Assembly: GCA_016206685.1 (NCBI GenBank) | Contig: JACQRB010000060.1 | Coordinates: 1-51,401, forward strand | Direction: 5' to 3' | DNA: 51,401 bases | Source: Candidatus Omnitrophota bacterium | GTDB lineage: Bacteria > Omnitrophota > Gorgyraeia > Aquiviventales > Aquiviventaceae | Shown: positions 37,101-51,401 of the stretch, in pieces | Layout: every line of letters begins with the position of its first letter | Numbering within the stretch: the stretch's first letter is position 1 | Notes under the pieces: model-generated | Told to the model about the DNA's origin: nothing | What the model saw: only the letters and a program-made list of their open reading frames with translations | The model's database searches: none | Position numbers and translations under genes: made by a program

Positions 37101-39735
37101 CAGCCTCCAGCGCCGGGTTGACGCGCGCGACCACCATCAGCGCCCGCGCTTCATCCGGGAAGCTGCCAAACAGCTTGGCGCCCGGTCCCACGGCTTTGAT
37201 GGACGACGCGCCGGGGTCGCCGAACACGAAGACCGTCGTCCCCTCGATGGGATCGTCCACGGACCATGTCGGTCTGCCCTGCGGATCGCCGACCACCATA
37301 CCCGCTTCATGCCCACCGGCGATTTCGCCTTTGGTCTCATAGTTCAGCAGCGTCTCCCGACGATGTGAGAGGGCGGCGACATCGTCGTCAACGCGCTGTG
37401 CGACCAGATCGGCGTCGGCTTTGATCTGGTCAATCCGGTCCTTATCCGCTTTCTTATCCAACCCCTCCGCCTGGCCGCGGTAGCCTGCCTGCACTGTCTT
37501 GATTGCCATCATCTGCGTCGAGAGCTGGGAGTAACCGGCATCTTCCAGTGGGGAGAAACCATCACCCGGCAGTCGTCCCGCGAGAAACTGCGTCGTGAAG
37601 TCGCGGTCCACCTCATGACTCAAGGGCACGACGCCGAATTTCTCCTGCAACCGGTTCCGCAGCTCAGCTTCAGCCAACGCCTGGGCGAGCGCCAGCGGCG
37701 GGGAGCGGGGGGCATCCACGAACGCTTCGGTGTGCCGGGCGATGAGGGCTCTGGTGTCAGCCGCCCGCAAGCGCGTGAAGATATCGGCAAATTTCGCTTC
37801 GAGCGTGGTGCTCACCGCTTGCTCCGCGTCGTGGGGCAAGTTCCAGAACAACTGGGTCCGTCCTGGCAGACCCGGGAACTTCTTGATGGCGTCTTTGCGG
37901 ATACTGGCTTGTTTCTGAGGATTCTCGGGTTTGCCCGCTGCTTCCCAATCTTTCTGGAAGAGCTCCTCGCCGACCGACGCGAGGAGCGTCTTCAAGGCTT
38001 CCGGCAGCGCCTCGTGACCAAGAATAAGATTCTGGAACTCGGTAGCGAGGTGGACCTCGGCGGTGTCATGCGCGGGGAAGTTATTGAAGAGCTCCGGCGC
38101 AAGGGTCGAGGCACCATGTTGCACTGACCCCGCCATATCGCCGAACTCTTCCGAGCGAATGAGGTCAGAGACTTGCTGGAGGAGGGGAAAGGCGACCGGT
38201 ACGTCGCGTATCAGCTTGCCTTGGTCATCGAACCGCCCCCCATGAGCGGCGCCTGTCTGGATGCTGAACGCGTCAGGTCCTGCGACACCCCGTTTGGCGA
38301 GCTCGGCTTTGAGCCCTGTCAAGAACGCTCGGACTTGGCTGAGGGTGGTGTTGGTCTCCTTGCCGACTTCACCAACCTCCACGCCAAGGCCAATGTTGTC
38401 ATCCCCGTGAATTTCTTTGGCGTTCGTCCGGGCAAACTCAATGAGCGCTGCCGAGACGGCGATGTTGTCCTTCTGTTGCTCGAGATCGAGCTCAAACTGT
38501 TGACGTTCCCGTTCGGCTGCGTCGGGCACCCCCGCCTCGGTGAGGAACTTTGGTGTGCCTTCAATCGTCGAGGCGTCAATATCAATGTTCCGGAATCCGG
38601 CGCGCAAGCCTTCCACGATGAGCCCCTTAATCCGTCCAATTTCCTTGGCGGGATCGGCTCGGTGGTTCTTGGCATTGAGCTGGGTGTGGTCCATCTTGAG
38701 GAAGACCGGCGCATCATGCCGTTCCAGCACCGCAGCGGCAAGAAGTTCTGCGGCGTAGGCTGCGTACCGACGGCCGGTATAACCCGTTTCGGAAGCCGCG
38801 AGCTCAAACACCATCGCCCCCACACCCTGCTTGTGAGCGGCGCGAAGGGCGGCGCGCGCGGTCACGAGTCCGCCCACGCGGATGTTCATCGCAGGGATCG
38901 TCCGCTGTGTCACCTCGCGTCGGCCCATCGCCTTGTAGTAGTCCCTGATCGAGGCGGAATAGACGCCGTACGAGGGCGCCAATTCGCGGATAGCCCATTG
39001 AGCGGCTTCGCGCACGGTCTGGTCGTCATGGAGCACCGCGTCATACGCCAGGTCGGCAAACACCGGGCGCAAGGCCTCTTTAACCTTGACCCGTTCCTTG
39101 ACGAACTCCGCCTGGTCCTCGCGCACCCGCAGGCGGGTTGCGCCTCGAGCATCCACATATCGCTCGGTAAAGGGTTCGAGTCGTCGCAGGAGGTCCCCAA
39201 CCGTCGCAAACCGCTCTTTATGCACATAGGTGCCGGTTTCAGGGTTGACTGCGTCGAAGACATCCGCCGAGACGAAGCGTGCGAGCGCCTCCTTTGTGGT
39301 AAGTGCCTCGGCGGCGAGGTCTTCAATCTGGTTGATCGTCCTGGCGGGATGTTGGGCGGCGGTCGCGGCGACGACCAGCCCCGCATCCACGGACCGGACC
39401 TCAGCCGCGGGATCCAAACGCTCCCGCAGGAGCGCCTGGAACCGCTGGACGGCGTCCTCAGAGACCTGGTCAACCTTCAGCCGGTGCGTCACGGAGTGCT
39501 GCTCATTCGCCAACTCCTTGACGGCTTGACGGGCGGCTCTCTTGAGCTCATCTAATCGCGGACGCAGGAGATCTGCGCGTAACTGCCAGGTCGTGTTGAC
39601 GTCAGCCCGCGCCGCCGGCGATCGCAAGAGCGTCTGCGCATACGCCAGCGGTTGCGCCTGCGAAACTGAGAACACGACAGCGACGAAGGATGCCCACCGC
39701 TTGGTCCACGCGCCCCTCAACCATAATCTCCTCAT
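28165..39735 (-). CDS. giant 3,856-aa multidomain protein: signal-peptide-like N-terminus, then class II aldolase-like, GlpX-like, ACP-like, isocitrate lyase-like, ACP-like, unknown ~700-aa region, GAPDH, ACP-like and unknown C-terminal region
   Basis: Single uninterrupted frame with sensible protein-like composition throughout. Recognisable enzyme motifs are listed in the sub-features below. N-terminus: MRRLWLRGAWTKRWASFVAVVFSVSQAQPLAYA-Q. Confidence 0.85.
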   Translation of the reverse strand: MRRLWLRGAWTKRWASFVAVVFSVSQAQPLAYAQTLLRSPAARADVNTTWQLRADLLRPRLDELKRAARQAVKELANEQHSVTHRLKVDQVSEDAVQRFQALLRERLDPAAEVRSVDAGLVVAATAAQHPARTINQIEDLAAEALTTKEALARFVSADVFDAVNPETGTYVHKERFATVGDLLRRLEPFTERYVDARGATRLRVREDQAEFVKERVKVKEALRPVFADLAYDAVLHDDQTVREAAQWAIRELAPSYGVYSASIRDYYKAMGRREVTQRTIPAMNIRVGGLVTARAALRAAHKQGVGAMVFELAASETGYTGRRYAAYAAELLAAAVLERHDAPVFLKMDHTQLNAKNHRADPAKEIGRIKGLIVEGLRAGFRNIDIDASTIEGTPKFLTEAGVPDAAERERQQFELDLEQQKDNIAVSAALIEFARTNAKEIHGDDNIGLGVEVGEVGKETNTTLSQVRAFLTGLKAELAKRGVAGPDAFSIQTGAAHGGRFDDQGKLIRDVPVAFPLLQQVSDLIRSEEFGDMAGSVQHGASTLAPELFNNFPAHDTAEVHLATEFQNLILGHEALPEALKTLLASVGEELFQKDWEAAGKPENPQKQASIRKDAIKKFPGLPGRTQLFWNLPHDAEQAVSTTLEAKFADIFTRLRAADTRALIARHTEAFVDAPRSPPLALAQALAEAELRNRLQEKFGVVPLSHEVDRDFTTQFLAGRLPGDGFSPLEDAGYSQLSTQMMAIKTVQAGYRGQAEGLDKKADKDRIDQIKADADLVAQRVDDDVAALSHRRETLLNYETKGEIAGGHEAGMVVGDPQGRPTWSVDDPIEGTTVFVFGDPGASSIKAVGPGAKLFGSFPDEARALMVVARVNPALEAAVLTLHQVASIEEFLNPSLGIETLISRIAALNGEADLSRVHVTTLTADTGDVAELKAISERTGLQYEVISEGTVQPAVAATLGVKGGPLRIFLRRSGMTEAVWNTLIASAYTGDGAYAGFQVVSPNVKKGMALKDDWSDPEAAKVKTKLIGYRAAYGDINEVLAGKIFSSRQVTEPIAGSFTFASDGRTDQRLPFDVPGVQPEGAVSHVNTLVFASNPQEPGQGYLQLVRSSYGPAAAPAAPAVDPKVLLRDLGRLKTSATYAGQDEIAGQAAQLISRLSTEPTDPNAITLATALLKQQGKLLGGGATTDREDIAGNVKRAVAAALGLSLEAVTGDLEVASHLGAIGSNLVEGEFGIFIPLVDLEAFYHGLREQRTVDQIIAYVEKFGSDSQTAPKQTESTTDLGKIGQDIQWIRDQEQKQAAAAALERETQQAADALARVPAEHRDAVASFSDALLERRVNILSERAEKAPVLRGLLAQVYLGELTGEQAAERAAVLLGIPISLMQEDMAKAPDEASFIQPVPATSELQREAEELEAQWKKEEALYGIKRDYTWEDFVQFYPADLPPEQRPKSMAEAVLRLRGALDIETYATARENAEQFREIVYGKDPEEFIFGLGVYTSQQVAQVLQARQQLKRMGKTKAILGTYGSGWNDAADNNDDEEIYSDLSLYSSPATQVRTVRRVNNAAQFTARQAALQGQPGTRKDWRPLHVVDFEALGSERHAFVKTRAVIKAGAGIGHDENQVPEDKVCGHLKGACNTTTTKMIAGLKGQRLAGDVMGVPFVIIGRTDALHAQFLLRDDPRDRSFILGVTNDREEMTYDQAVANGFAGEWKEVEITPGRFVTELKAGERGTWAPLRNRDQLYLVRPGIERAIATALEFAPYSDLLWFEDHAISMEHAKQFAEAIHAKYPGKPLAFNLSGNLPWDKHLGTEELETFQKELAKLGYKYQFITTFGFHGITYSTYELALDVGLRGMVAYAEHQAKEQAAREHGYTAFDGNRETGTGYWDSIRLMAGTPSPDALALRGSTAGQFYTATPAGRKDPTGGGLSSQQFLKVLEQARAGNESALRRLAVYEKDNHRLFWNQVEGFGIDRVEAEALLEKGRALAPETTPPAAVSLEERRALLRQRLTQQDGAPEISQNTQRFEQVAQERIGLPELGEARFADGRLVNTEEWEQHPTDPTRIRQKAHHNITAIWNSEQGVYDLPGVGGGAPGEVSEAYAIVTIVNQLSIQFPKQIQQTPLRQLYAETLLWLTRQELQNPQAAKPETLASLILEGLEVLHEWGRVWRQASTLHQGPNPLLQKLGVSEKQADAFIAQARAVLDAVQAKTDQLLARYPGGKDALPAGAIWTVRQARGFLHEVLDHQQGIVLDVSWEDGRRVANPRQFLDGEALPDLGVVNADYDSDARRFTLVLARPKVGPHGGATTAKEDFLGDGKKVIAGVLKVKPEDVNATDSLRELILRTTGSGDASVSSEEWVAWQSRNIARALAAESGIPADQLGTFYGLLGDVMPSATVKQVLERTWSFINQTKAPQVGPRGDAPVGKAITLRLPGIGVGDIPRGSDAHRAMLEQIASASKRSLDESHPGWLQRMGDLLYRHGRPPFMVGDVRAAQQAELLSALGRVLSNGEGAAGIAKLGLTVSAQMPEYAGKPIKNIEIVLVDLGTQTHFGDLFEGGAYELSEYEESSATLKIYMTEQYVKTYFPQTGTSAVTETVLHPIFESIFGLTHQEAILSLWWYNAPSSEENGKVRGREILSNVHRAVLEEIGQLAEQGDPRAMQYLLSLALTVPQALPDDSLTVLNDKPLERPPKWIQALQDSYVDTAQRIAQFVQHWVKIIDIDGRRYTYVAGHFVSYEEVPEKVQQGAEARFVAEQIEGSLERLKPLIDVFRSEEFGGVTALVPTVVRSSTDQPMPLVPYRGEKRLLVPPNNIVVGRSPKATGTVIGVNVTPGPTFVHLTLLVPKKVEGYRVVGALRAAGIQVQATEASSMVQDVNATAVVDADTLVVKEVDGLGSLIDLKVFYDSGESGVVRGSLMEPSKFADGLHLKRPIRVAINGAGGRTGLTILRQLLLHHRPDQIQVVAVNARSAEYLKYALQHDTEHGEFSLPIELGKDETGDWLEIQGQRIWVYSQRILKGLPWVRHEVDIAVDATGEFVSKEALAGHLEAGAKRVILTNPSDAKKADEHKADFSLLLGVNEDQLPADAEVIDCASCTTNSYAPPMSIAKQGPYRVLAGVLGTTHAVTGTQRLTDGFDRRRERGRAAPRNMVLTETGADRATVPILPDLAGKLSGTALRVPTGTGSISVVTNIVEVPERMPLTAEGVNEHFRKLAATDQLQGILAVEAGLVGSQQIVGRSESSILLEEGTQVTPLGGNRYLVRQLFWYDNEWGYSARVVDAVYVVGAKLIEAEAAAALLTLEEITARAKRAIAEALDMKPEEVTGDVGGRLLESRSLQALALAEEFNIPPEKRDAFARGLLRQHNFEEQIVPYLGSTLAALRAGGLRGGAPVTKAAEDDAGIEARLEALVRGGRFRYASIGRETIRVLSVGVAWPEEIVGLSERGSVLSIARARFSRLSNGEYEMTGRLEGPTPPRWVDANLVAILAMHSPAPSKKAPRGGVELSLQERRDLLMQAFLRLEEAPREMIEVIDERIAQQHDRLMMDTMNWFASQPIPPVGERNALAQETQRAGEFERQWTEVVGEVTAAIERSDIPEELQGRVESVLSRLRGALGAIVDYAEALEAAFLSSRAQPGAVAPVADERLIAQATLARDPALSGLFENTLATPEQAEAMVDMDHPRVVIVHEAALKERGVPLAIALQELERDLQLVLQEALRTAGIQGLEDWKGSLQFLRVDEADGVEGLLRSLPGRLEHLGVPGAQVALVVGPEDWARDMKLALEQRSRQQVAAFALRPGAASDHAVLDWNVIMAAAEAAVAGDQFSERVRAKFDLVSDGTGVFTIPELAISPAAEAVIRDQEAVLSQA
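29641..29862 (-). other. domain: ACP-like module 3
   Basis: AKRAIAEALDMKPEEVTGDVGGRLLESRSLQALALAEEFNIPPEK is colinear with the ACP helix I-II-III pattern (S in RSL at the DSL position). Confidence 0.45.
29900..30969 (-). other. domain: glyceraldehyde-3-phosphate dehydrogenase (approx. aa 2923-3278)
   Basis: IRVAINGAGGRTG (Rossmann motif); CASCTTNSYAP with the catalytic Cys at 30463-30477; TTHAVTGTQRLTDG; TETGADRA; WYDNEWGYSARVVD. Confidence 0.85.
32720..32820 (-). other. domain: ACP-like module 2 with a DSL motif
   Basis: GKKVIAGVLKVKPEDVNATDSLRELIL. The pre-serine helix and D-S-L match the phosphopantetheine attachment-site pattern. Confidence 0.4.
34066..35453 (-). other. domain: isocitrate lyase-like (ICL/PEP-mutase superfamily; approx. 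aa 1428-1890)
   Basis: YGSGWNDAA...YSDLSLYSS; the catalytic-loop signature KVCGHLKG at 34833-34856 (canonical K-[KR]-C-G-H); IIGRTDA; APYSDLLWFE; FNLSGNLPW; GYKYQFITTFGFH; EHGYTAF...TGTGYWDSI. Confidence 0.8.
35938..36170 (-). other. domain: acyl-carrier-protein-like four-helix module 1 (degenerate)
   Basis: NVKRAVAAALGLSLEAVTGDLEVASHLGAIGSNLVEGEFGIFIP...TVDQIIAYVEK is colinear with the ACP pattern (...EEVT...LGADSLD..EL...EEEFD.EIP...AIDYI). Confidence 0.45.
36470..37530 (-). other. domain: class II FBPase (GlpX)-like, divergent (approx. aa 735-1088)
   Basis: SVDDPIEGTTVFVFGDPGASSIKAVGPGA parallels GlpX DIAVDPIEGTRMTAMGQANALAVLAVG. The downstream segments are colinear, but the GEGEIDEAP and GGAPEG motifs are degenerate. 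Confidence 0.5.
37750..39000 (-). other. domain: class II (metal-dependent) fructose/tagatose-bisphosphate aldolase-like (approx. aa 245-660 of the giant ORF)
   Basis: From memory, these segments parallel E. coli FbaA. TIPAMNIRVG matches ALPAVNCVG. PVFLKMDHT matches PVILHTDHC. NIDIDAST matches HMIDLSE. LGVEVGEVGKE matches LEIELGCTGGEED. IQTGAAHGG matches ASFGNVHGV. VQHGAST matches FHGGSGS. Confidence 0.7.
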
Positions 39736-41855: not shown

Positions 41856-44800
41856 TTAGAGTGACTTTACGGTGATTGCTAAGGCTCTGATGGCGTTACT
41901 GGCGCGTTGAGTGATCGTTTCCTCGCCTGGCTGGAGGTGGTGGCGCCGCTTCCATGCCCACCCTGCTAACGCAAGAACGGTGATGGCCAACCCGATGAGT
42001 CCCGCCGCCCACAGCCCCCAGGATGACGCGCTCCCCGCCCCAACCACCTGCCCAATCCCCTGCGCCAGCAGGGGCGAGACGGCAAACAGCCCCGCCACCG
42101 GCGCCAAGAAGAGTGGCAGCACCCACGAGCGCACCGGAGGAGCGGAGGGGCGCTGGTCCTGATACGCCTTCTTGACCTGCGCAACGGCTTGTTGCGTCAA
42201 CGCCACCTGATAGCCAATCTGGTTGAATTGGCTCCTGGTCAACCCGAACCGTCTGGCTCTCTTCAGATGCGCCAGGACGTTGCGAAAGGCGCCATCCACT
42301 CCGGCGAGCAGCTCCTCGGCGGTCTGGGCGTCATCAATCCGGTTGGCGGCTGGCGCCAACAGGTCCACCAGTTGACGCGGTAGCTCGCGCGCGCGCAGGC
42401 GCTCCGTCTGATCCCACTGCGCAAAAAAGTCGCGCAAGGCGGCTTGAGCCCGATAAAGGAACAGCCTCAGCTCGACGCGCAGCTTGCTCACCTGATTCCA
42501 GGAACGATTGGAAACCTCCGACCCTCCTCCGGCTCCTCCCCCTATAATGAAGGTCCCGCGCGCCTGCGGTCTCCATAAGCCCTCCTCCCAGAGCCCGTGC
42601 CGCTGCAGGAACTCCTGCGCCGGCGGATCACCGAAGGTCATGTTGGGGAGGTTCGAGCCATCCCCGCGTGCCGGGCGCCCATTCGCTTCTCCCGTCGTCT
42701 TCGTTTTGACTGTTTTGTGATGGAAATAGAACGCCGACAGGACGGCGAGGGACACGGTGGCTATTCCCATCAGCGTCCACTGCCCATACGCAAACGGTTG
42801 GTCGAAGTATGCGCTATACACGAACTTCACAGCCACTCCCAGAACCGCGACCACACCCCCCCAGAGGAATACACCTTTCGGCGAAAATCGAGGGTGTGCG
42901 TGATACGCGACCGCCGAGCGAAACGCTTGATTCACAAAGCCATAGACAAAGACGGTGAAGATTCTAAATTCGCTCTCAAATAAGTTCTGCGCAAGATCGT
43001 GAACAGCAAAATGAGTGGCAGACCGAGCTATAACACCCGTTAAAACACGGTCCCACTGTTTACCAGCCGTTGCCTGCTCACGGAGCCGCTTTGCCTCCTC
43101 AAATCTCCCTACCTGCTCGTAAGATCTCGCAGTCAGACGCCGGATACCGATTGGTTCAAACAAATCATAGAGCATGCCGGTCGCAAGCCCGATGCCCGTT
43201 GAAACTATGGCGCGCGGCAACGCTGCCAACGACCCAGTACTGGGAAGGAAGTAATCAATGAGCACAAAGACCAGGGACAAAAACACGGCTTGCAAGGGTC
43301 GGTACAACACATAGGAAAATACCATCAAGGCTTGGAACCGTTTCGGTAAATTGGCGCTCGAAAGGTACACGCCGATTAAACGCGCGCCGCCGGAAGTGAG
43401 CGCCGTGAGCGCCGCCAAGGCAAACGAAGTCCAACCGGGATGTTTCTGTAATTCAAAGTAGTTCTGCCAAAACGTCAGCTGACCCGTCACGACCCAATCA
43501 ATCAGGGAAGCGGATACGAGAAGAGCGCCCGCCACAGCAGAATAGGAAAGGACAGTCCTTACTCGACGGTTCAACTCGTTGCTTGCCGGGTCCGTCGCGT
43601 CTTTCCTCTCCTGAATCCTCTGAACACTAGAAGACATGTAAGTCTTAAACAGAGGAGACGTCACCTGAACCCGGAAGCTCGAGCGGGTGGAGCTGAAGAA
43701 GGGCTCCAGGTCCGTATCCTCGAGCAGCACGGCATCCACCGTGATCCCCTGCCCATCGGGGTGCGTCAGCGCCAAGACAAACGGAAGGGACACCGAGCCG
43801 GTCCGGAACCGTCCAATGAGGAAAGCTCCGCGATTGCGATAAAACCGCGATTGGACCATCTCAACCTGGACTTGGCGAGGATCGATGTGATGATGGCGGA
43901 AGGAGGTCTCGACCTCCCCCGCCGCTAACTGCACGTCACGATCCAGGTCCTCGTACGGCACGCGGAAGCGATAATCCGCAAGGATTCGTCTGATCAGATC
44001 CTGAGTCTGGGGACTTGAATCCGCCGGGGCTCGGCCCGCCAAAAACCGCCGCTCCTGGGGATAGGCAAAGAACTCCGGGACCTGCCCGTTTCGCAGTTGC
44101 TCCTGAATCTTGTAATAAGAGCCTGCTGAAAAGAGATCGCCATGAACGGCTTGAAACTCCTCCCAGAACTGCTCCGGGATGTGCGCGGCGAAGAACTCCT
44201 CAAGACTCGGTTCGCCCTGAGGGTCCGTGTACCCCTGGAGCACAATCTCATTCTTTCCAAGCTCTTCGTAATAGAGGTTCGAGGTATCGTCGTCCTGTAC
44301 GCTCAACTGACGCAGCATGTGTTTAAACGTGATGGCTGTCAGCTGCTGCAGATCATCATAGTCATACAACACGACCCGACCATAGGAGGTGACGCCGAAA
44401 TTCCAAAACTTGAAGTTCCACACCTCCCCTGGGAAGATGCCGGCAGCCATCAGGTCCTTGATACCATTGCCGAAATCCATAAGGACGCGACGGATGATGT
44501 CGGGGTTCTGCGCGTTCTGCTCGAGATAGAGCTGCAAGGGCGTGACCTCCCGCTGCACGTACACATGCTTGATGAGCACGAAGTCGCCTTCCACCGACAC
44601 GCTCTCCGCGGCATGGGCGAGCAGGAACTCAAGCAGCTCTTCGCTAAAATAGCGCTTCTCAAGCCGGAGATTCTCATAGGTCGAGGCATCGAGCATCCGT
44701 CCGACGCGATCGTGCTCACGCACGAAGCGGTACTTGTCCTTCACGAATTGCCTGACCGGATCTTTGATGATCTTGAACACATATCCGGAACCAGGAAGCG

Positions 44801-47800
44801 TAAACACCCCCATGACAGAGCCGTGTTCCCAACCCGCCGCAAGGCGGAAGAGTTGTCCGCTCTCCCGGAGATACTTCCTGAGCTCCTGGTAGAAGAACCG
44901 CTTGGCGAGCTCGTAATACCCGATGCCGGTATAGAGGACGGAGCCATAGAGGTGGGATTGTTTCCTCGCAGGAAGGATGGAGTCCAGGAATGTCACAAGC
45001 TCGCGCAACGCGCTCGGCTGGCGCTCATGGTCACCAGCGAAGTCAATCACGTAGACCAACCCGTTCGCTTCGGCACTCGCCACCCCAACAGCTCGACTGA
45101 CGGCGGAATTGAAAAACGACTGAGCCAGCTCAATGTCAGGCTTCAGGACGCCAAGGGACTTGGTGTACGCCTCCTTGATGGCCTTCCACGTCGCGGGGTC
45201 GTTAAACCGCTCGCCGAGCTGCTGTTTGAGCGCGGGCAACGCGTGCTGCAAGACGTAGCGGTAATACAATCCCACCCGATCCTCATCATCGGAGACCACC
45301 CCCGACCACTCGCGCCGCTCGAAGCGCTCCGAAGCCCTGGCAGCAATCCGGTCGAGTCCCCGCTGGTAACCGTCAAACGCGTTGAGGATCGCCCGGGCGC
45401 CCTGGCGCGCCGCCCACCACGACTGCCCGTGCTTGACCCACCATAGGACAAATCCGCCCAGGCGCGCCATGAGCGCCTGCACGCCCGCCCGGAAGGTTCC
45501 CGTCGGCACGGGCATCCCCAACCACATAGCTGCCAAATTCGCGAGGACGGGCGCGTGTACCGTGGCGTGTGTCGTGGCACGATCGCGTGCTTCCCATTCC
45601 CACCGCCATGCCCCATCGTGGCGCACGAGCCGATAGCCGGCCTGACGGTAGAGGTTGTTGAGCCGCTCAATGGTGTTGCGATGCAGCGGGAGCTGCGTGC
45701 TGTCAAAGAGCTGACTGCCGGTTGGCATACGGATCCGGTGAAAGCCCCGCTGTTCTGCGTAGGTCCGAAAGACCCGTTCAGTCAGGTGTTCAATAGAGCC
45801 AATCTGCTCCCGAAGCGTTGGAGGCAACCGATCAATCTGGAGCCACGCCTGTAACTGCCCGATGTGCGCCACGCGCCTATCTTCGTCGTCGAGTTCAAAG
45901 GTCACCGTGCTCAGCAGCAACGGCGCTGTGGGATCGTCTCGCGCCGGGAGATACGGCAACAGCGCGGTGAGCAGCGACTGATCCGCCAGCCACACCGAGA
46001 ATGCCTCCTGACCCTCAATGTCAGGAAGACCAGTCAGGTCATCATGGACCGGACCTTCGCTGAAGCGGAGCTGCGAGGCGTGGAGCGGATCCTGCAGCGA
46101 CCCGTCAGGTAACTCGAAGTCGTGATGCTTAATGCCCAGCATGTCCCCGTAGCTTGAGTACGTTTTGTCACGGTTGCTGAGCAAGGTGGCTGTGGAGTTC
46201 TTCACATCCCATTTGACACCGAGGCGCTCATCGGCAATGGCAGCGATCGAAAGACCATTAGCCAATGCTTGATCGATGGATGGCCAGCGGTCCGGGTTGA
46301 GCAGGTAATCGCCCATCATGGACAGCGCCTCATCCCATCGCTCGCCGAACCGGCTCCGGAGATAGTCGGCTGTCTGAGGAGGCAGCGTTGACAGGGCGTC
46401 CCCGTCAGGCTGTTTCGAGAAGCCCCTGATACGTTGCAGGGATGCAGCCAATCGCTGCGCCATGCGTTGCGGCAAGCCGACGGACCAGGCAAGCCAGACG
46501 GCGCCCGTGAGCATCACGGATGCCTGGAGGATCACACCGGCGGGGCTGTCCGCCAAGCCGGGATGGAACCACTCCATCAGGGGGCGCAGCGCAAACACCG
46601 CCACACCAAGCAGGACGGGACCCTGACGGCGTTTCCACAGCGGGCTCCTGGCTCCTTTGACCACCTGGACGATGGAAATCTCCTGCGCCAAGAGCCGTTG
46701 CGCATCCCCTCCGCGCTTCTCAAAGGCGGCTCGAAGAGCCGCGTTGATGGCTTCGGTGAGCTCCGGATGCCTCAGCAGCGTGTCATGGCTTGGCACCCAT
46801 CCCAGCAGACGGCTGGTATCGTAGAGCGAAAGGACCAGCGTTCCATCGGGAAGCCGGGTGAAATACGCCAGGTCCTCCTTCGTGCCCAGGGCTTGGAGGA
46901 TCCGCGCCGCCAGCGATTCCGCCTGGTGAGCGCTCTTCTGGGCTTTGACGAGGCGGATGCCGGTGATGCCCTGCCTGGCAATCGGATGCGCGGCTTTCCC
47001 GCGTCCCCGCAAGGCGGCTCGAAGAGCTGCGTTGATGGCTTCGGTGAGCTTCGGATGCTTCGAGAGCGTGCTCACGCTCGGCGATCCTTCCAGCAGACGG
47101 ATGGTGTCTTTAATCGTGAGGGTCACCACCCCGTCTGGGGATCGAGTCACGGTGTCGAGCGCGCCGGCAACCTGCAGGGCATCGAGCAGCCGCAGCGCCA
47201 ATGCCTTGGCATACGCGGACAATTGCTTCGGGTCTTTCGGGGTCTGTTGGGGAGGATAGGGTTTCTTGATGGGCGCCGTTCTGAACGAAGCCAGCTGCCC
47301 GGGTGAAAGCTGCGCGGCGAGGGTCAGGTAGTCCGTTCGGACGGTGAGCACGCGGTCAGACGGTTCCTGTTCCTCGTCCCCTCCTTCTCCCTTTTCTTCA
47401 AGCTCAAGACGGGGATTACCATAGAAACGCACCCTCACCAATTTCACCCAGGTGCCCAATGGAGGATTTTCGAGACGCGTCGCCTCCACTGCCTCAATGA
47501 CGCCAAGCCCGAATCCGTCGTGCACCACCTCCACCCCAAGCTGCCAGGGATCTTCCGGCACCGCGTTGACAGGCGCAGGAACTGGCGCGGGGCGTGGGGC
47601 AACCACCTGCTGAACCTTCTTAGGCGCTTCCTCAACGATTGGAGGCGGCTTCTGGATCTTGTCCTTCGCCTTTGATAGCGGTGGTGTGGTCGGAGCCGGT
47701 TGGATGAGCCGATCGTAGGCGTCACGGATGGCGGTCTCGGCTGCTTGGGGCGAGCCGAATGGAGCGAGCACAGAATCGGAAGGGTCGGCCGTTTGCGCTC

Positions 47801-50800
47801 CCGTGGCATCGGAGGAGAAGGACACGCGAGGATCAGTCGTCACGAACCGCGCATCATTGCGATTGCGCTCCAAGTCCACGCCGCGCAGGACGTCCGGTCT
47901 GCTGGAAGCCGCCGGCGGTTCGGGCGTCCTCTCAATGATCTTGCGTGCCACATCGCGCAACCGCTGCCAGAGGTCCCTGTACCAGGCAAGCCCGAGGATG
48001 CCGGCAAGCAGGACTCCCCCAGATGCGGTATCAGATACGGTAGCTGATACCAAGCCCGCCGCGCCCAACCCCAACGCCGAGAGCCCGAGGAGGATGGGCA
48101 GGAAGAGCTCAGTTCGAAGCGCTCCCTCCTCGCGGGAGAACGTCCCTCCACGATGCAGAGGGACGCGGTTCCGAGTGAGGGCGTTGACCGCGCGAGTGAG
48201 ATAGGCCAACTGCTGGCTTGCAGGACCGATCACCCGGTAGCCGATCTCCTCAGCCTCCTCCACGGGCAAGCGTTCCTCCTGTCTCAGCGCGGCGAAGTAC
48301 GCCGTGACATCCTCCCAGAGCTCGGCGACCTCCTTCAGGCGCTCCGGGATGTCCTCCGCGGCGACCGAGCTCATGGGAGGGAGGGCGGACTCGAGCGCCT
48401 CCAGCCGCCTGAGGAGCGTGTAATAGCGCTTGCCGAGGCGGTCAGAACCCGCCAGGGACGTGAGGAGCGGCTCCACCTCCCTCACCAGGAATTGGCGGAG
48501 CGGCTCGCCTATCGCCGCAAGCTGGTCGCTCTTCTTGCGGCGATAGGTCTCGAGGGACTTGAGCATCCCGACGACGAGCGGCAAGAGCTCCACCGGCGGC
48601 AGCGAGGAGAGAGAATCAAACGGGACGGGTCTGCGCTGTGGGTCGCGCTCCTTCCGGCTGGGGTGCGGCTTAATCGGCATCCTTGCCGCTAGCTCCCGCA
48701 GCTTTTGCTGGAGCTCCTTCAGCGCGGGCGGTGGCGAATCGGTTTGCCGAGCCAGCGCGCGAAGCTCCCCAATCCAGGCGCGGATGGCACGGACGGCTGT
48801 CGGCGCGTTCGCCAACCCCTCAAACTCCTTCAGCACGACCGATTCGAGATCGTCCGCAAGCCGGGCGTACAGGGTGCGTGAATGAATCCTCCCTTGCGCG
48901 AAATCACGGAAGTGGATGAGCAAATCGTCCACAGCCACCTTGAGAAGGAACCCGCGCATGTAGGCGCGCGCCGCGTTGCGCCGGTTGACCGGCTTCTCCT
49001 TGAGCGAGTCTTCAGCATCCATGAACCAGGATTCGTGTTCTTGGACGCGAGTAGCCGCAGCCGCCAGCGCCGGCGGTGCCTGAGGCGCAGGCATTGCTAT
49101 CTCAACCTCGGTCGCCCCAACCAACCGCGCCATCGCCACGAAGAACGCCAGCGGCGTCATCCACGCCAACAACCGGAAGCGCCCGCGCGGCTTGAGGGGT
49201 AGGTTCTGTGTTCCGGGCTGAGCAGGGCGGTCTTCCAGCAACTTGGCGTCCTGCCCCGCGCGCCCTGACGGCGGCTCGCTTGCGTCGAGAACCTGGGAGG
49301 CTCGTTGTCTCGGGGCGCGCAGGAGTCTCCATGACCTCCAGAAGATCGCCCCACCAGCCACCATCAAGCCAAGACCAAGGAGGATGTGAAAACGGTCCAA
49401 GATGTCGAATTGCAGGAGCCGACCAATGCCGGTGAGAGCCACAAACGCGCCCAAGCCGAACAACCCAGCTCCGAAAGGCCCGATGTCTGACCGCGAGACG
49501 ATCTGATCAACGCGAAGTATGATCTTGAACTGCGCACGGCGCTTAGCCCACTGCGCCAGATAGCGAAGGGAAACTTTCGAACGCCTGTCTCTGGCGTGTT
49601 TGATCAGCTCGTCTTCACGCTGGTCGAGGCGTTGCTTGATTGCAGTGAGCAGCCGGCTGCGTTCAACCCCCAGGATCCAGTCTCCCAGCCAGCCGAACAA
49701 CCCCAAGGCGAGGAAGGCGCCACCCGCCAGTAACAGCCAATACATCGCAGGGTTGCTGATCCTGAGGTCAGTCGGCGAGCCGAGGTTAGCCTGGGCCGCG
49801 GCAGCCAGGGAGCCGAGATCGAGCCCAAACGCGCTGGCAAGCCCCAACCCCGCCCACTCCGCCGCCACCAGCAGGAGGGTCAGCTTGACAGCGTTCAGCG
49901 TCGTGGGATATACTGACTGGTGCCATGAAACCCATCGAGGCCATCGACTCCCTCGAGGACGGGCAAAATGAAGAACTCGCGTGAGAAGCTCATTCAAGTC
50001 GATCCAGATATCTGTCACGGAAAACCGTGCTTTGCCGAAACGCGGATTCTCGTCTCCGATATTCTGGAGCTCCTTGGAGCCGGGATTGCTCCCACCGAGA
50101 TCACGTCGAAGTACTTCCCCCGACTTCGTCAAGCGCATGTCCGTGCGGCGCTGCAGTACGCGGCTGAGCAGTTGAACAACCGCGAATTTGTGGCGTTCAG
50201 CAACTCCTAGCCCGTCGTGCGGCTGCTGCTCGACGAAAACATCCCGAAGCCGACTGAAGACGCGCTGCGCGTGCTGGGGCATAGCGTCCTCCGCGCCCCC
50301 GTTCGAACGAAGGATGAGACGATCGCTCGAGCGGCGGAAGCCAAGCGGGTGATCCTCCTCACGCGTGACGACGATTTCTTGAATTTTCTGCCCCCGACGC
50401 ACTCGGGCATCGTCGTGATCCGCATCCACCCGCCTGTTGCCGAAGCCATCACGCGAGCCGTCAGGATGCTCCTGGAAGCCCACCCTGAGCGCTGGCTGCG
50501 AGGGAAAGCCCTGCTTTTGCGCCGCGACGGCTACGAGCTCGTCCGGTAATTTCGTGGCTAATCCCGCCTGCATCCCTGCCGTCGCCTTCGGCGGTGTCGG
50601 AACCGTCGTGGCCCACCCCTGCCCGGCCAAAGCCAGGAAGACCGCCACCGCCGCAAGTGTCAGGCCAAGCACGAGCGGCAGCCAGGCATGGAGGGCGGTG
50701 CCGTGCTGATGAACGGGATGAAAGACGATGACGCCTGATGCCTTTGCAATCGCTTCAATCTCCGCCACCCCAACGTCATACATCCTGGTGTCGGGCGTGA

Positions 50801-51401
50801 TGAGCACCTCACCGATTCCGAGCTCGCGACCCTCCCCGGGGTTGCGCCCATCGAACAGGCGATTGTAGTCCCGCAGCGCCTGCGTGAGCTCGCCGAGCCG
50901 CTCACGAACCTGGCGGAACTGCTTGCTCTGTAACGCTTCCTTCGCCGACGCAATGAGCAGCTCGCAGAAACACAACACTATCCCCAACTGCATACGCTCC
51001 TGCCACCCCTGCTCCTTGCCCCGTCTCAGGGATTCCATGGCGCGGTCATGGAGCTGCTCAAGAGGAATCCGGCTGCCGGCACGATGCACAGTCACCATCC
51101 CCAGCGCCATCGGCGTCATGGCGATGCCTGCCGCTCCTGTCGGCGAAGCGGCAAGCAGCTCAACGACAGTGACGACCAGCAGCGCGAGCCACGGATGCTT
51201 GCGGACAGACTGAACCGGGGAGTACCAGAGGGGCGGCAAATGACCACCTGTGTCCGCCGCCAGTTTCGCGAGGGCTCCACCGGCTTCCTGGCGGACGTGC
51301 GGATGGGGGTCTTGTCGGAGCACCCGTGCAAGGGCGCGCCGGTTGACGCGGCGGACCATGCGGTCGCGCGGATCCATCTCGCCCAGCGCCCTGGCGGCTT
51401 C
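41856..51401 (-). CDS. giant polytopic multidomain ORF (at least 3,173 aa, 5' end beyond window): HEAT repeats, TM segments, tandem ~95-aa repeats, AceK-like module, C-terminal multi-TM region. As read it is continuous, but 49968-50549 is antisense to a toxin-antitoxin pair
   Basis: No stop occurs in this frame from the window edge to 41856. Upstream of the ORF-track Met the frame still reads HEAT-like EAARALGE. Composition is protein-like except across roughly 49900-50560. Whether this is one gene or two is unresolved (see findings). Confidence 0.55.
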   Translation of the reverse strand, partial: EAARALGEMDPRDRMVRRVNRRALARVLRQDPHPHVRQEAGGALAKLAADTGGHLPPLWYSPVQSVRKHPWLALLVVTVVELLAASPTGAAGIAMTPMALGMVTVHRAGSRIPLEQLHDRAMESLRRGKEQGWQERMQLGIVLCFCELLIASAKEALQSKQFRQVRERLGELTQALRDYNRLFDGRNPGEGRELGIGEVLITPDTRMYDVGVAEIEAIAKASGVIVFHPVHQHGTALHAWLPLVLGLTLAAVAVFLALAGQGWATTVPTPPKATAGMQAGLATKLPDELVAVAAQKQGFPSQPALRVGFQEHPDGSRDGFGNRRVDADHDDARVRRGQKIQEIVVTREEDHPLGFRRSSDRLILRSNGGAEDAMPQHAQRVFSRLRDVFVEQQPHDGLGVAERHKFAVVQLLSRVLQRRTDMRLTKSGEVLRRDLGGSNPGSKELQNIGDENPRFGKARFSVTDIWIDLNELLTRVLHFARPRGSRWPRWVSWHQSVYPTTLNAVKLTLLLVAAEWAGLGLASAFGLDLGSLAAAAQANLGSPTDLRISNPAMYWLLLAGGAFLALGLFGWLGDWILGVERSRLLTAIKQRLDQREDELIKHARDRRSKVSLRYLAQWAKRRAQFKIILRVDQIVSRSDIGPFGAGLFGLGAFVALTGIGRLLQFDILDRFHILLGLGLMVAGGAIFWRSWRLLRAPRQRASQVLDASEPPSGRAGQDAKLLEDRPAQPGTQNLPLKPRGRFRLLAWMTPLAFFVAMARLVGATEVEIAMPAPQAPPALAAAATRVQEHESWFMDAEDSLKEKPVNRRNAARAYMRGFLLKVAVDDLLIHFRDFAQGRIHSRTLYARLADDLESVVLKEFEGLANAPTAVRAIRAWIGELRALARQTDSPPPALKELQQKLRELAARMPIKPHPSRKERDPQRRPVPFDSLSSLPPVELLPLVVGMLKSLETYRRKKSDQLAAIGEPLRQFLVREVEPLLTSLAGSDRLGKRYYTLLRRLEALESALPPMSSVAAEDIPERLKEVAELWEDVTAYFAALRQEERLPVEEAEEIGYRVIGPASQQLAYLTRAVNALTRNRVPLHRGGTFSREEGALRTELFLPILLGLSALGLGAAGLVSATVSDTASGGVLLAGILGLAWYRDLWQRLRDVARKIIERTPEPPAASSRPDVLRGVDLERNRNDARFVTTDPRVSFSSDATGAQTADPSDSVLAPFGSPQAAETAIRDAYDRLIQPAPTTPPLSKAKDKIQKPPPIVEEAPKKVQQVVAPRPAPVPAPVNAVPEDPWQLGVEVVHDGFGLGVIEAVEATRLENPPLGTWVKLVRVRFYGNPRLELEEKGEGGDEEQEPSDRVLTVRTDYLTLAAQLSPGQLASFRTAPIKKPYPPQQTPKDPKQLSAYAKALALRLLDALQVAGALDTVTRSPDGVVTLTIKDTIRLLEGSPSVSTLSKHPKLTEAINAALRAALRGRGKAAHPIARQGITGIRLVKAQKSAHQAESLAARILQALGTKEDLAYFTRLPDGTLVLSLYDTSRLLGWVPSHDTLLRHPELTEAINAALRAAFEKRGGDAQRLLAQEISIVQVVKGARSPLWKRRQGPVLLGVAVFALRPLMEWFHPGLADSPAGVILQASVMLTGAVWLAWSVGLPQRMAQRLAASLQRIRGFSKQPDGDALSTLPPQTADYLRSRFGERWDEALSMMGDYLLNPDRWPSIDQALANGLSIAAIADERLGVKWDVKNSTATLLSNRDKTYSSYGDMLGIKHHDFELPDGSLQDPLHASQLRFSEGPVHDDLTGLPDIEGQEAFSVWLADQSLLTALLPYLPARDDPTAPLLLSTVTFELDDEDRRVAHIGQLQAWLQIDRLPPTLREQIGSIEHLTERVFRTYAEQRGFHRIRMPTGSQLFDSTQLPLHRNTIERLNNLYRQAGYRLVRHDGAWRWEWEARDRATTHATVHAPVLANLAAMWLGMPVPTGTFRAGVQALMARLGGFVLWWVKHGQSWWAARQGARAILNAFDGYQRGLDRIAARASERFERREWSGVVSDDEDRVGLYYRYVLQHALPALKQQLGERFNDPATWKAIKEAYTKSLGVLKPDIELAQSFFNSAVSRAVGVASAEANGLVYVIDFAGDHERQPSALRELVTFLDSILPARKQSHLYGSVLYTGIGYYELAKRFFYQELRKYLRESGQLFRLAAGWEHGSVMGVFTLPGSGYVFKIIKDPVRQFVKDKYRFVREHDRVGRMLDASTYENLRLEKRYFSEELLEFLLAHAAESVSVEGDFVLIKHVYVQREVTPLQLYLEQNAQNPDIIRRVLMDFGNGIKDLMAAGIFPGEVWNFKFWNFGVTSYGRVVLYDYDDLQQLTAITFKHMLRQLSVQDDDTSNLYYEELGKNEIVLQGYTDPQGEPSLEEFFAAHIPEQFWEEFQAVHGDLFSAGSYYKIQEQLRNGQVPEFFAYPQERRFLAGRAPADSSPQTQDLIRRILADYRFRVPYEDLDRDVQLAAGEVETSFRHHHIDPRQVQVEMVQSRFYRNRGAFLIGRFRTGSVSLPFVLALTHPDGQGITVDAVLLEDTDLEPFFSSTRSSFRVQVTSPLFKTYMSSSVQRIQERKDATDPASNELNRRVRTVLSYSAVAGALLVSASLIDWVVTGQLTFWQNYFELQKHPGWTSFALAALTALTSGGARLIGVYLSSANLPKRFQALMVFSYVLYRPLQAVFLSLVFVLIDYFLPSTGSLAALPRAIVSTGIGLATGMLYDLFEPIGIRRLTARSYEQVGRFEEAKRLREQATAGKQWDRVLTGVIARSATHFAVHDLAQNLFESEFRIFTVFVYGFVNQAFRSAVAYHAHPRFSPKGVFLWGGVVAVLGVAVKFVYSAYFDQPFAYGQWTLMGIATVSLAVLSAFYFHHKTVKTKTTGEANGRPARGDGSNLPNMTFGDPPAQEFLQRHGLWEEGLWRPQARGTFIIGGGAGGGSEVSNRSWNQVSKLRVELRLFLYRAQAALRDFFAQWDQTERLRARELPRQLVDLLAPAANRIDDAQTAEELLAGVDGAFRNVLAHLKRARRFGLTRSQFNQIGYQVALTQQAVAQVKKAYQDQRPSAPPVRSWVLPLFLAPVAGLFAVSPLLAQGIGQVVGAGSASSWGLWAAGLIGLAITVLALAGWAWKRRHHLQPGEETITQRASNAIRALAITVKSL
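43650..45390 (-). other. domain: isocitrate dehydrogenase kinase/phosphatase (AceK)-like, with non-canonical segment order
   Basis: ILNAFDGYQRGLDRIAARASERFERREW ... FFNSAVSRAV (AceK N-terminal region). VFTLPGSGYVFKIIKD, REHDRVGRMLDA, IKHVYVQREVTPL, FGNGIKDLMAAGIFPGE, NFGVTSYGRVVLYDYDD (kinase core). After the C-terminal-like FAYPQERRF come SRFYRNRGAFLIGRF ... VDAVLLED ... FFSSTRSSFRVQV. Confidence 0.75.
46645..47215 (-). repeat. two tandem ~95-aa protein repeats inside the giant ORF
   Basis: ...SPDGVVTLTIKDTIRLLEGSPSVSTLSKHPKLTEAINAALRAAL... is followed by ...LPDGTLVLSLYDTSRLLGWVPSHDTLLRHPELTEAINAALRAAF.... The DNA cores 47011-47060 and 46724-46773 differ at only 3 of 50 positions. Confidence 0.75.
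49885..49914 (+). promoter_or_regulatory. candidate sigma70 promoter for the DUF433/DUF5615 pair
   Basis: Plus strand reads TTGACA (49885-49890), 18 nt, TATACT (49909-49914), about 54 nt upstream of the DUF433 ATG. Confidence 0.4.
49968..50210 (+). CDS. DUF433-family protein (putative antitoxin)
   Basis: 80 aa. IQVDPDICHGKPCFAETRILVSDILELLGAGIAPTEITSKYFPRLRQAHVRAALQYAAE fits the DUF433 pattern (DP-x-I-x-x-GKP, x-GTRI-x-V, IL, YP-L, AL-YA). GAGGA lies upstream of the ATG. Confidence 0.8.
   Translation: MKNSREKLIQVDPDICHGKPCFAETRILVSDILELLGAGIAPTEITSKYFPRLRQAHVRAALQYAAEQLNNREFVAFSNS
50217..50549 (+). CDS. DUF5615-family PIN-like protein (putative toxin)
   Basis: 110 aa with a GTG start. MRLLLDENIPKPTEDALRVLGHSV...RVILLTRDDDF...HSGIVVIR fits the DUF5615 pattern (LLDENLP, G-H-x-V, ILVT-x-D-x-DF, G-V-I-x-L). 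It starts 6 nt after the DUF433 stop, which is the usual pairing. Confidence 0.78.
   Translation: MRLLLDENIPKPTEDALRVLGHSVLRAPVRTKDETIARAAEAKRVILLTRDDDFLNFLPPTHSGIVVIRIHPPVAEAITRAVRMLLEAHPERWLRGKALLLRRDGYELVR
51250..51401 (-). other. domain: HEAT (PBS-lyase-type) repeats at the window edge
   Basis: EAARALGEMDPRDRMV...ALARVLRQDPHPHVRQEAGGALAKL shows the typical D-x-x-x-VR-x-x-A-x-x-AL periodicity. Confidence 0.5.

Follow-up and report, generated by a model that had tools for sequence, protein, structure and literature searches.

A toxin-antitoxin operon lying antisense within a giant open reading frame of a groundwater Omnitrophota contig

Makarova et al. 2009 (PMC2701414) predicted that pairs of PIN-domain and COG2442 (DUF433) proteins function as toxin-antitoxin (TA) systems. 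A validated pair of this kind is VapBC10 of Synechocystis (PMC3834315), and VapB45 (Rv2018) is among the validated or structurally studied examples. The COG4634/PIN_10/Mut7-C proteins form a reduced PIN-like group, for which no structure had been solved at the time of the survey by Matelska et al. 2017 (PMC5499597). Here we analyze a DUF433/DUF5615 pair on contig JACQRB010000060.1 of a Candidatus Omnitrophota bacterium (assembly GCA_016206685.1); the complete contig of 51,401 nucleotides (nt) is referred to as the window. An earlier note made from the sequence alone had described this pair as lying, together with its own promoter, antisense inside a giant minus-strand open reading frame (ORF) that crosses it without a stop codon, and this description was borne out by Pfam matches, a promoter scan, and a reading of the frames.

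Bacterial ORFs rarely harbor functional protein-coding genes in antisense orientation, and such cases are usually disputed. Shadow ORFs, in which a GC-rich gene has a long open antisense frame in its codon-complement phase, are familiar, and TA cassettes are known to stabilize large dispensable DNA, for example the chromosomal superintegrons of Vibrio. Omnitrophota encode giant proteins of the Archaeovorin type, which exceed 30,000 amino acids (aa) and contain many transmembrane (TM) helices, HEAT repeats, and glycolytic-enzyme-like domains (West-Roberts et al. 2023, bioRxiv 10.1101/2023.11.21.568195). In word searches of that work and of a 2026 preprint on complete Omnitrophota genomes (10.64898/2026.06.07.730766), genes nested antisense in giant ORFs were not mentioned, and full-text literature searches retrieved no description of TA genes in such a position.

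The operon and the reading frame across it

The antitoxin matched the Pfam model PF04255 over the whole profile (E-value 8.6e-20, 70.8 bits, cut-off 23.6), and the toxin matched PF18480 (E-value 1e-13, 51.5 bits, cut-off 23.8), so that the proposed family membership of both plus-strand ORFs held with curated models as the test. Further matches of the toxin to Mut7-C (22.6 bits) and PIN_10 (21 bits) were just under the respective cut-offs. The antitoxin comes first in the operon; its stop codon (50208–50210) is followed by 6 nt and then by the GTG start of the toxin gene at 50217, with both genes in one shared frame (Table 1). The TTGACA-18-TATACT promoter upstream of the pair is the only sigma-70-like site on either strand of 49300–51401, a region in which shuffled sequences gave 0.2 sites. 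Together with the Shine-Dalgarno-like GAGGA 8 nt before the antitoxin ATG, it confirms the promoter, ribosome binding site and 6-nt spacing that had been proposed. A scan of the same region detected no terminator-like sites on either strand.

All nine toxin homologues compared (55–80% identity) were exactly 110 aa long, and residues D6, E7, T49, R50, D51, and D53 were invariant across the ten toxins including that of the window; the acidic residues D6, E7, D51, and D53 may be catalytic. An AlphaFold2 model of the toxin with a predicted local distance difference test (pLDDT) score of 93.8 had an alpha/beta fold. In a Foldseek comparison with the PDB nothing was retrieved at E < 0.02 (an NYN domain ranked seventh), and fold searches with the toxin and the antitoxin gave no significant match to solved structures; for the toxin, the absence of a PDB neighbor is consistent with the reported lack of solved structures in the COG4634/PIN_10/Mut7-C group. 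Judged by protein families, gene order, and promoter, the operon is a complete type II TA system of the VapBC-like PIN-COG2442 class with a putatively active toxin. The leader of the operon also contains a 19-codon ORF (MKPIEAIDSLEDGQNEELA) at 49925–49984 on the plus strand, which overlaps the antitoxin start in a different frame; a 27-nt deletion found in run X8 (see below) begins at base 2 of its ATG and takes out nine codons' worth of sequence.

The frame shared by the two TA genes is the exact codon complement of the giant frame, and the giant ORF thus crosses the cassette without a stop. As the earlier note had stated, TTA, CTA, and TCA codons, which a minus-strand stop would require, are missing from both genes. 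Between 49885 and 50560 the giant frame contains no stop, compared to seven and six stops in the other two minus-strand frames. The antisense translation of the cassette (here called the shadow segment) consists of 12.8% Arg versus 8.6% in the rest of the giant protein, and has a net charge of +8. Its previously noted non-coding appearance was corroborated by base composition and codon usage. The GC content at third codon positions (GC3) exceeds that at first positions (GC1) along nearly the whole giant ORF, whereas this order is reversed at ~50.5–49.9 kb (GC1 0.74–0.79, GC3 0.67–0.68). Likewise, a codon log-likelihood trained on eight Pfam-supported genes of the same contig preferred the plus frame in the cassette, including the antitoxin gene, and the minus frame in both flanks.

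The open frame is not confined to the TA genes but joins long minus-strand coding sequence on both sides, extending with coding signals for at least 280 codons upstream and for 2675 codons downstream of the cassette. Both flanks are coding on the minus strand and carry TM-like hydrophobic segments at the edges of the cassette (aa 233–251 and 499–517 of the giant protein), in agreement with the earlier note. That note had also proposed GC3 and codon-usage tests and a comparison with orthologues; the former resolved minus-strand coding in the flanks and plus-strand coding in the cassette, whereas the latter yielded no cassette-free gene. A start of the giant gene at ATG 51377 had to be corrected. 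The frame has no stop 5' of this codon, remains open up to the contig end at 51401, and begins with HEAT-repeat-like residues; the giant ORF is therefore 5'-truncated and comprises at least 3181 codons.

The interpretation that we favor, and consider fairly probable, is that a real Omnitrophota giant gene holds a working VapBC-like operon antisense in the linker that connects two of its TM-like segments, and that selection keeps the giant frame open. The giant gene would be transcribed and translated straight through the cassette, which would add ~226 aa of Arg-rich sequence that is free to vary and probably forms a cytoplasmic loop between the hydrophobic segments. Stops and frameshifts in the shadow segment would be purged by selection, since either would shorten the giant protein or render its downstream part polar. 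The TA operon itself would be expressed from its own promoter, convergently with the giant gene, and could serve as an ordinary addiction or stress module.

Recurrence in related loci and patterns of change

Five related loci carrying the same cassette clade were analyzed. L001 and L002 were found through the antisense translation, by a HMMER search with aa 1–1200 of the giant protein, and their DNA was then fetched; L013, L014, and L015 were picked by sense similarity to the toxin only (67–78% toxin identity). The long ORF of L001 (at least 1213 aa) runs stop-free across five called genes on the opposite strand, among them DUF5678, DUF5615, and DUF433 genes, and then enters a methyltransferase domain; the DUF5615 toxin of this locus shares ~65% identity with the window toxin. 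The 1125-aa ORF of L002 begins with a DUF7790 domain, crosses an antisense DUF433 gene and subsequently an antisense PIN_3 toxin gene (63.5 bits) with its upstream partner ORF, and ends in a further domain. The antitoxins of these two loci are 66–74% identical to the window antitoxin. The antisense frame of L013 passes the cassette without a stop and stays open as far as a scaffold gap (468 aa); those of L014 and L015 span the whole contig from end to end, cassette included (513 and 482 aa, respectively). A read-through antisense frame was thus present in all five related loci, and several of the antisense genes in L001 and L002 are off the codon-complement phase yet free of stops.

Eight distant DUF433 loci with 58–71% GC served as controls: one Anaerolineae locus, the only one that the toxin retrieved from GTDB species genomes, and seven from a metagenome scan with an antitoxin alignment (43–48% identity). 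Their antisense frames end after 69–359 codons, and none of the eight joins long coding sequence. The cassettes of the window and its five relatives also have a layout of their own. In all six, a 6-nt gap lies between the two genes and keeps them in a common frame, as opposed to a 4-nt overlap and differing frames in the three distant loci with a resolvable pair. A TTGAC[AG]-17/18-TAnnnT promoter precedes the antitoxin gene in each of the six loci, and hydrophobic text borders every cassette on both sides. The cassettes are ~80% identical while the flanks cannot be aligned between loci, which fits mobility of the cassette or fast drift of the flanks. For L002 and L013, however, the cassette and ~250 nt of flank are shared at 85% identity, a sign that the arrangement persists. 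The signal that the open frame is not due to chance lies in this recurrence, and since the same layout was found in every close relative fetched, the arrangement is probably maintained rather than accidental.

Differences between the toxin genes peak at sense third codon positions (for example 13/13/45), and in every toxin pair the sense amino-acid identity (59–78%) is higher than the antisense identity (37–61%). Both patterns point to purifying selection on the TA genes in their own frame; the shadow peptide, by the same comparison, is kept open and not conserved in sequence. Protein-level conservation on the minus strand, which according to the earlier note would speak against a nested operon, was looked at in this context. 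A database protein (P0003) shares 39% identity with the minus-strand translation, and resemblances of this type trace to the plus strand as a by-product of conservation there, so that the finding stands.

These data also bear on the possibility of an artefact, i.e., a chimeric assembly, or a misreading, with the true conserved protein encoded by the minus-strand stretch and spurious plus-strand ORFs as its shadows. Apart from the database proteins that resemble the minus-strand translation, such an explanation could invoke related toxin 3' ends that occur with other flanks in the same samples, with loose ends at 50531 and 50549. However, the plus-strand ORFs exceed curated Pfam cut-offs, the substitutions and identity comparisons point to selection in the plus frame, and GC position and codon usage reverse inside the cassette. 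Moreover, the junctions were checked in Logan assemblies from independent samples. The left junction and the cassette are contained in single contigs from three groundwater samples, one of which (8729 nt) covers 48900–50568, and the right junction (50539–50688) is bridged at even depth in three groundwater samples. Because independent assemblies cover both junctions at even depth, a chimera at the cassette is unlikely, and we regard an artefact of either kind as highly improbable.

Population and interlocus variants provide a further line of evidence, as the three indels observed in or beside the cassette measure 81, 27, and 171 nt (the latter in the L002 toxin gene) and are all multiples of three, with a joint chance of ~0.04. 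The 81-nt deletion polymorphism in the giant-gene flank beside the toxin stop had unitig depths of 3 versus 7.3 in run X1 and 7.6 versus 8.35 in run X2, corresponding to ~40% to roughly equal abundance relative to the full-length form. The 27-nt deletion in the TA leader was found in run X8, a sample of another study, where a 151-nt contig matches 49857–50034 perfectly apart from one 27-nt gap at 49926. A 3-nt gap at 49850 in a contig of run X5 was not counted, as the 55 aligned nt match at ~89% and probably stem from another locus.

Several further observations were made in the related sequences. Compared to L013, the toxin gene of L002 (1400–1580) lacks the above 171 nt, an in-frame loss of 57 codons; with the promoter and the DUF433 gene intact, this leaves an apparent orphan antitoxin inside the long ORF. 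A second small antisense pair, partly off the codon-complement phase, lies under the long ORF in L001 (1–625) and L015 (1047–1446); it consists of a DUF5678 gene (26–29 bits, above the cut-off) and a downstream partner with a faint retropepsin-like match. The database match P0008 (241 aa) has a sense DUF5615 N-terminus followed by an antisense translation of a TA cassette, which suggests a palindromic or chimeric short contig.

Chance, a split gene, and the origin of the arrangement

A number of results weigh against a giant gene that is selected to remain open across the operon. When synonymous codons were resampled with the TA protein sequences kept fixed, the probability of an open frame across the two TA genes, given the phase, came to ~0.45 with codons drawn as in the ordinary genes of this contig. 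If the phase is assigned 1/3 and the spacers ~0.4 (our own estimate), an antisense placement made at random would have a ~6% chance of staying open, and the window locus alone is therefore suggestive and borderline, not decisive. The loci themselves represent approximately three or four independent contexts rather than six, because L002 and L013 (cassette and ~250 nt of flank in common, 85% identity) as well as L001 and L015 (two cassettes in common, ~70% identity) are homologous pairs. L001 and L002 were obtained by a route that is biased toward read-through, as it used antisense translations, and three of the related contigs are just 1.4–2.1 kb long. No orthologue of aa 1–750 of the giant protein was found in the searched protein collections besides the contig's own protein. 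A search for RNA runs containing the region gave none. Public annotation begins the gene at TTG 49847, which has a plausible GGAG upstream. The 81-nt deletion takes away half of the upstream hydrophobic segment, which would be odd for a needed membrane helix. Finally, the L002/L013 flank by the toxin end lacks third-position bias in the frame of the long ORF (9/6/10), and this part of the long ORF is thus not constrained at the amino-acid level.

The chance calculation depends on the codon usage assumed. Under the giant genes' own usage, the probability of an open frame across the TA genes was 0.012. Under the lenient, ordinary usage the six loci gave 0.45, 0.036, 0.15, 0.44, 0.059, and 0.115. 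Open antisense frames of 235–631 codons are common across the ordinary genes of the contig. Codon avoidance in the TA genes was also considered as a sign of selection and was rejected as weak, given the value of ~0.45.

Several of the points above would be expected if the locus comprised a split gene or two units, each expressed on its own. The downstream gene would then begin at an internal start such as TTG 49847, the upstream 280 codons would be a decaying remnant or a small gene with a junk tail, and the openness would reflect the rarity of antisense stops in GC-rich DNA. The public protein P0001 (2663 aa, NCBI nr) is 100% identical to the giant protein from aa 511 onward and has GGAG 9 nt before its TTG, and no homologue was found that joins the upstream and downstream parts. 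The probability of ~0.45, the long open antisense frames elsewhere on the contig, the weakly constrained L002/L013 flank, and the toleration of the 81-nt deletion in the population fit this explanation as well. Against it, the upstream segment is coding on the minus strand yet has no stop of its own, so that ribosomes there must traverse the cassette. The scan of 49300–51401 yielded no promoter-like site from which a downstream unit could be expressed, and the indels are multiples of three. Read-through in five of five related loci, partly off the codon-complement phase, contrasts with its absence from all eight distant DUF433 loci, whose GC is equal or higher. TTG 49847 is not convincing as a natural start because it lies inside a hydrophobic segment, but as a possible internal start with a GGAG motif it corrects the earlier note, which had found no convincing downstream start or ribosome binding site. 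All told, we judge a split gene to be unlikely, albeit a serious competitor.

Of the three explanations offered in the earlier note, the unrecognized two-gene boundary, which in effect is how the public annotation treats the locus, fails to account for the stopless upstream coding segment and for the repeated pattern in relatives. The other two, an inserted cassette that is read through and a genuine nested antisense arrangement, amount to one and the same state today, which is backed by the five related loci, the same-frame layout, and the triplet indels.

The nested operon may have originated by insertion into the giant gene or by fusion across a pre-existing cassette. Searches turned up neither a cassette-free orthologue nor a target duplication nor a border repeat. 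Specifically, word-indexed and HMMER searches retrieved no cassette-free orthologue joining both flanks, and insertion junctions were thus not definable. No clean direct repeat surrounds the cassette (the best local match score was 29, which was reached by 1 of 300 shuffles), and no shared repeat family was detected at module borders in 28000–51401, where only weak similarity between TM-coding stretches was seen. In a fusion history, two membrane-protein genes with a C-terminal and an N-terminal anchor, respectively, would have flanked an intergenic TA cassette, and loss of the upstream stop would have created one giant ORF, leading to the same present state. This would be in line with the missing target-site duplication and border repeats, with the hydrophobic text that bounds every cassette as at membrane-protein ends, and with the hydrophobic segments at the ends of homologues of the aa 753–921 module. 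As TA antisense frames are open about half the time, stop loss and a phase match would suffice. However, the searches retrieved no unfused relative, the 6-nt same-frame layout throughout the clade suggests an adaptation carried by the cassette and not by each host gene, and ~80% identical cassettes in unalignable flanks fit mobility as well as fast flank drift. We consider the fusion history improbable.

Going beyond the favored interpretation of a selectively maintained nested operon, small TA operons in a groundwater Omnitrophota lineage might be adapted to life inside giant genes, as their single frame, 6-nt gap, location in TM linkers, and tolerated shadow peptide could indicate. They might act there as intragenic addiction modules against deletion, or couple the giant gene to stress by convergent transcription. 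We put this forward tentatively and with more doubt than belief, and any stabilizing or regulatory role of the nested operon is speculation.

The giant gene and comparison with described systems

The contig originates from groundwater metagenomes and has a GC content of ~62%. Its MreB is 82–90% identical to the best named matches, all of which are proteins from Candidatus Omnitrophota/Omnitrophica metagenome-assembled genomes. Together with the homologues of the domain at aa 753–921 of the giant protein, this similarity places the host genome in the Omnitrophota. The aa 753–921 domain also occurs in giant proteins of 3236–3295 aa from two Omnitrophota contigs (9.7–9.9 kb, 43–45% GC), each of which is filled by a single ORF; giant ORFs of such a kind are thus real in this phylum. 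The two low-GC ORFs contain no antisense genes with a Pfam match, and among 89 plus-strand open segments in the two giant ORFs of the window, the two TA genes alone had Pfam matches.

Table 1 Features of the nested operon and the giant ORF in the window.
Feature	Position (nt)	Strand	Basis or remarks
Sigma-70-like promoter TTGACA-18-TATACT	49885–49914	+	Promoter scan; 11/12 positions match
Shine-Dalgarno-like GAGGA, 8 nt 5' of antitoxin ATG	49955–49959	+	Sequence reading
Antitoxin gene, 80 aa, DUF433/COG2442 (VapB-like)	49968–50210	+	PF04255, codon log-likelihood
Toxin gene, 110 aa, GTG start, DUF5615/COG4634 (Mut7-C-like branch, PIN-like superfamily)	50217–50549	+	PF18480
Shadow segment, ~aa 273–498, antisense translation of cassette	49884–50561	-	Arg-rich; not conserved as protein
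Giant ORF, at least 3181 codons, ~15 TM-like segments, AceK-like region	41856–51401	-	ORF list, translation
TM-like hydrophobic segment before cassette, aa 233–251, LPLVLGLTLAAVAVFLALA	50625–50681	-	Kyte-Doolittle, 19-residue window, 2.54
TM-like hydrophobic segment after cassette, aa 499–517, LTLLLVAAEWAGLGLASAF	49827–49883	-	Kyte-Doolittle, 1.69
AceK-like region, permuted, aa 1994–2575	43653–45398	-	Profile matches
TTG start of public 2663-aa protein P0001, GGAG 9 nt 5'	49845–49847	-	Sequence reading
81-nt (27-codon) deletion polymorphism, giant-gene flank beside toxin stop	50567–50647		69-nt unitig joins 50566 to 50648
27-nt (9-codon) deletion variant, TA leader	49926–49952		Run X8, sample of another study

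In total, 15 hydrophobic segments were called in the giant protein by a simple hydropathy scan alone. A Pfam scan of 3173 aa of the protein matched AceK domains only and detected no SecA DEAD domain; weak HEAT_2 and HEAT-like matches were obtained at the contig-end segment. Relative to the Pfam models, the AceK-like region is ordered as regulatory positions 1–107, the whole kinase domain, and regulatory positions 138–257, and its NCBIfam equivalog score of 425.5 is below the cut-off of 488. A word-indexed protein search with aa 1–1000 gave no match, and looking up the exact sequences of the antitoxin, the toxin, the 3173-aa ORF, and P0001 led to no recorded contig. HMMER with aa 1–1200 against 1.84 billion representatives retrieved the contig's own protein (aa 511–1200), the aa 753–921 domain, HEAT-like repeats, and long proteins with an antisense-cassette-like stretch.

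The ~280 coding-looking codons upstream of the cassette (50562–51401, minus strand), which comprise a HEAT-like start followed by hydrophobic and helical segments, lie outside the public protein and are probably unannotated in the source record. At aa ~1400–1560 (46400–47200, minus strand), two tandem ~70-aa modules (...PDG.V.L...DT.RLL...PS..TL.KHP.LTEAINAALRAA...) were recognized by eye; a BLASTP self-comparison of the giant protein did not report them. A second giant ORF at 28165–39735 (minus strand, 3856 aa) combines in a single frame the domains of class-II fructose-bisphosphate (FBP) aldolase, isocitrate lyase, and GAPDH (N and C) and has no hydrophobic segments. The two adjacent giant ORFs together contain fused glyoxylate-shunt and gluconeogenic enzyme domains, and BLASTP self- and cross-comparison of both proteins returned nothing significant.

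What sets this locus apart from disputed cases of nested antisense genes is that both partners are independently recognizable, the operon by curated-model matches and its antisense counterpart as a giant multi-domain ORF, and that the pattern is repeated in relatives. If translation through the cassette were confirmed, giant genes could hold live, independently transcribed operons in tolerated linkers, which would be a possible route for giant-gene growth or stabilization, and selection for openness alone could shape more than 200 codons whose sequence is not conserved. If, in addition, the operons proved to be adapted to this location, they would represent a new mode of residence for a selfish element that is neither spliced out, as an intron or intein, nor disruptive, as an insertion sequence. 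There are also consequences for annotation. Gene callers permit a single gene per stop codon and must therefore sacrifice the TA genes or shorten the giant gene, and the public annotation indeed cuts the giant gene at the internal TTG and leaves out ~280 coding codons. Catalogues of Omnitrophota giant genes may therefore undercount both gene length and nested genes.

Among described systems, superintegron TA cassettes resemble this operon in being small addiction modules in large, costly, and deletion-prone DNA. They differ from it in that the module described here resides inside an ORF and that no integrase or attC-like repeats were seen; given these absences, the lack of border repeats, and flanks that cannot be aligned between loci, an integron-like cassette array was rejected. 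With the Archaeovorin type, the giant ORF has in common the Omnitrophota host, many TM-like segments, HEAT-like repeats, and central-carbon domains (AceK; FBP aldolase, GAPDH, and isocitrate lyase in the neighboring ORF). In contrast to these proteins of more than 30,000 aa, however, it has at least 3181 aa, being cut by the contig end, and Pfam detected no SecA DEAD domain in it, so that by its domain content it is better termed Archaeovorin-like than a member of this type. The stretch across the cassette is exactly a shadow ORF, stop-free through absent TTA, CTA, and TCA codons. Unlike the short and isolated shadow ORFs of ordinary DUF433 loci with equal or higher GC, it is continuous in phase with real coding sequence at either end, a connection that recurs among the related loci. 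The TA genes themselves correspond to the VapBC-type PIN-COG2442 systems, with a DUF433 antitoxin of 80 aa encoded first, a small COG4634/DUF5615 toxin of 110 aa, and an own promoter. They depart from distant DUF433/DUF5615 pairs, which overlap by 4 nt, in their 6-nt gap and shared frame, and from the known PIN-COG2442 operons in their location, which is not intergenic but antisense in a giant ORF.

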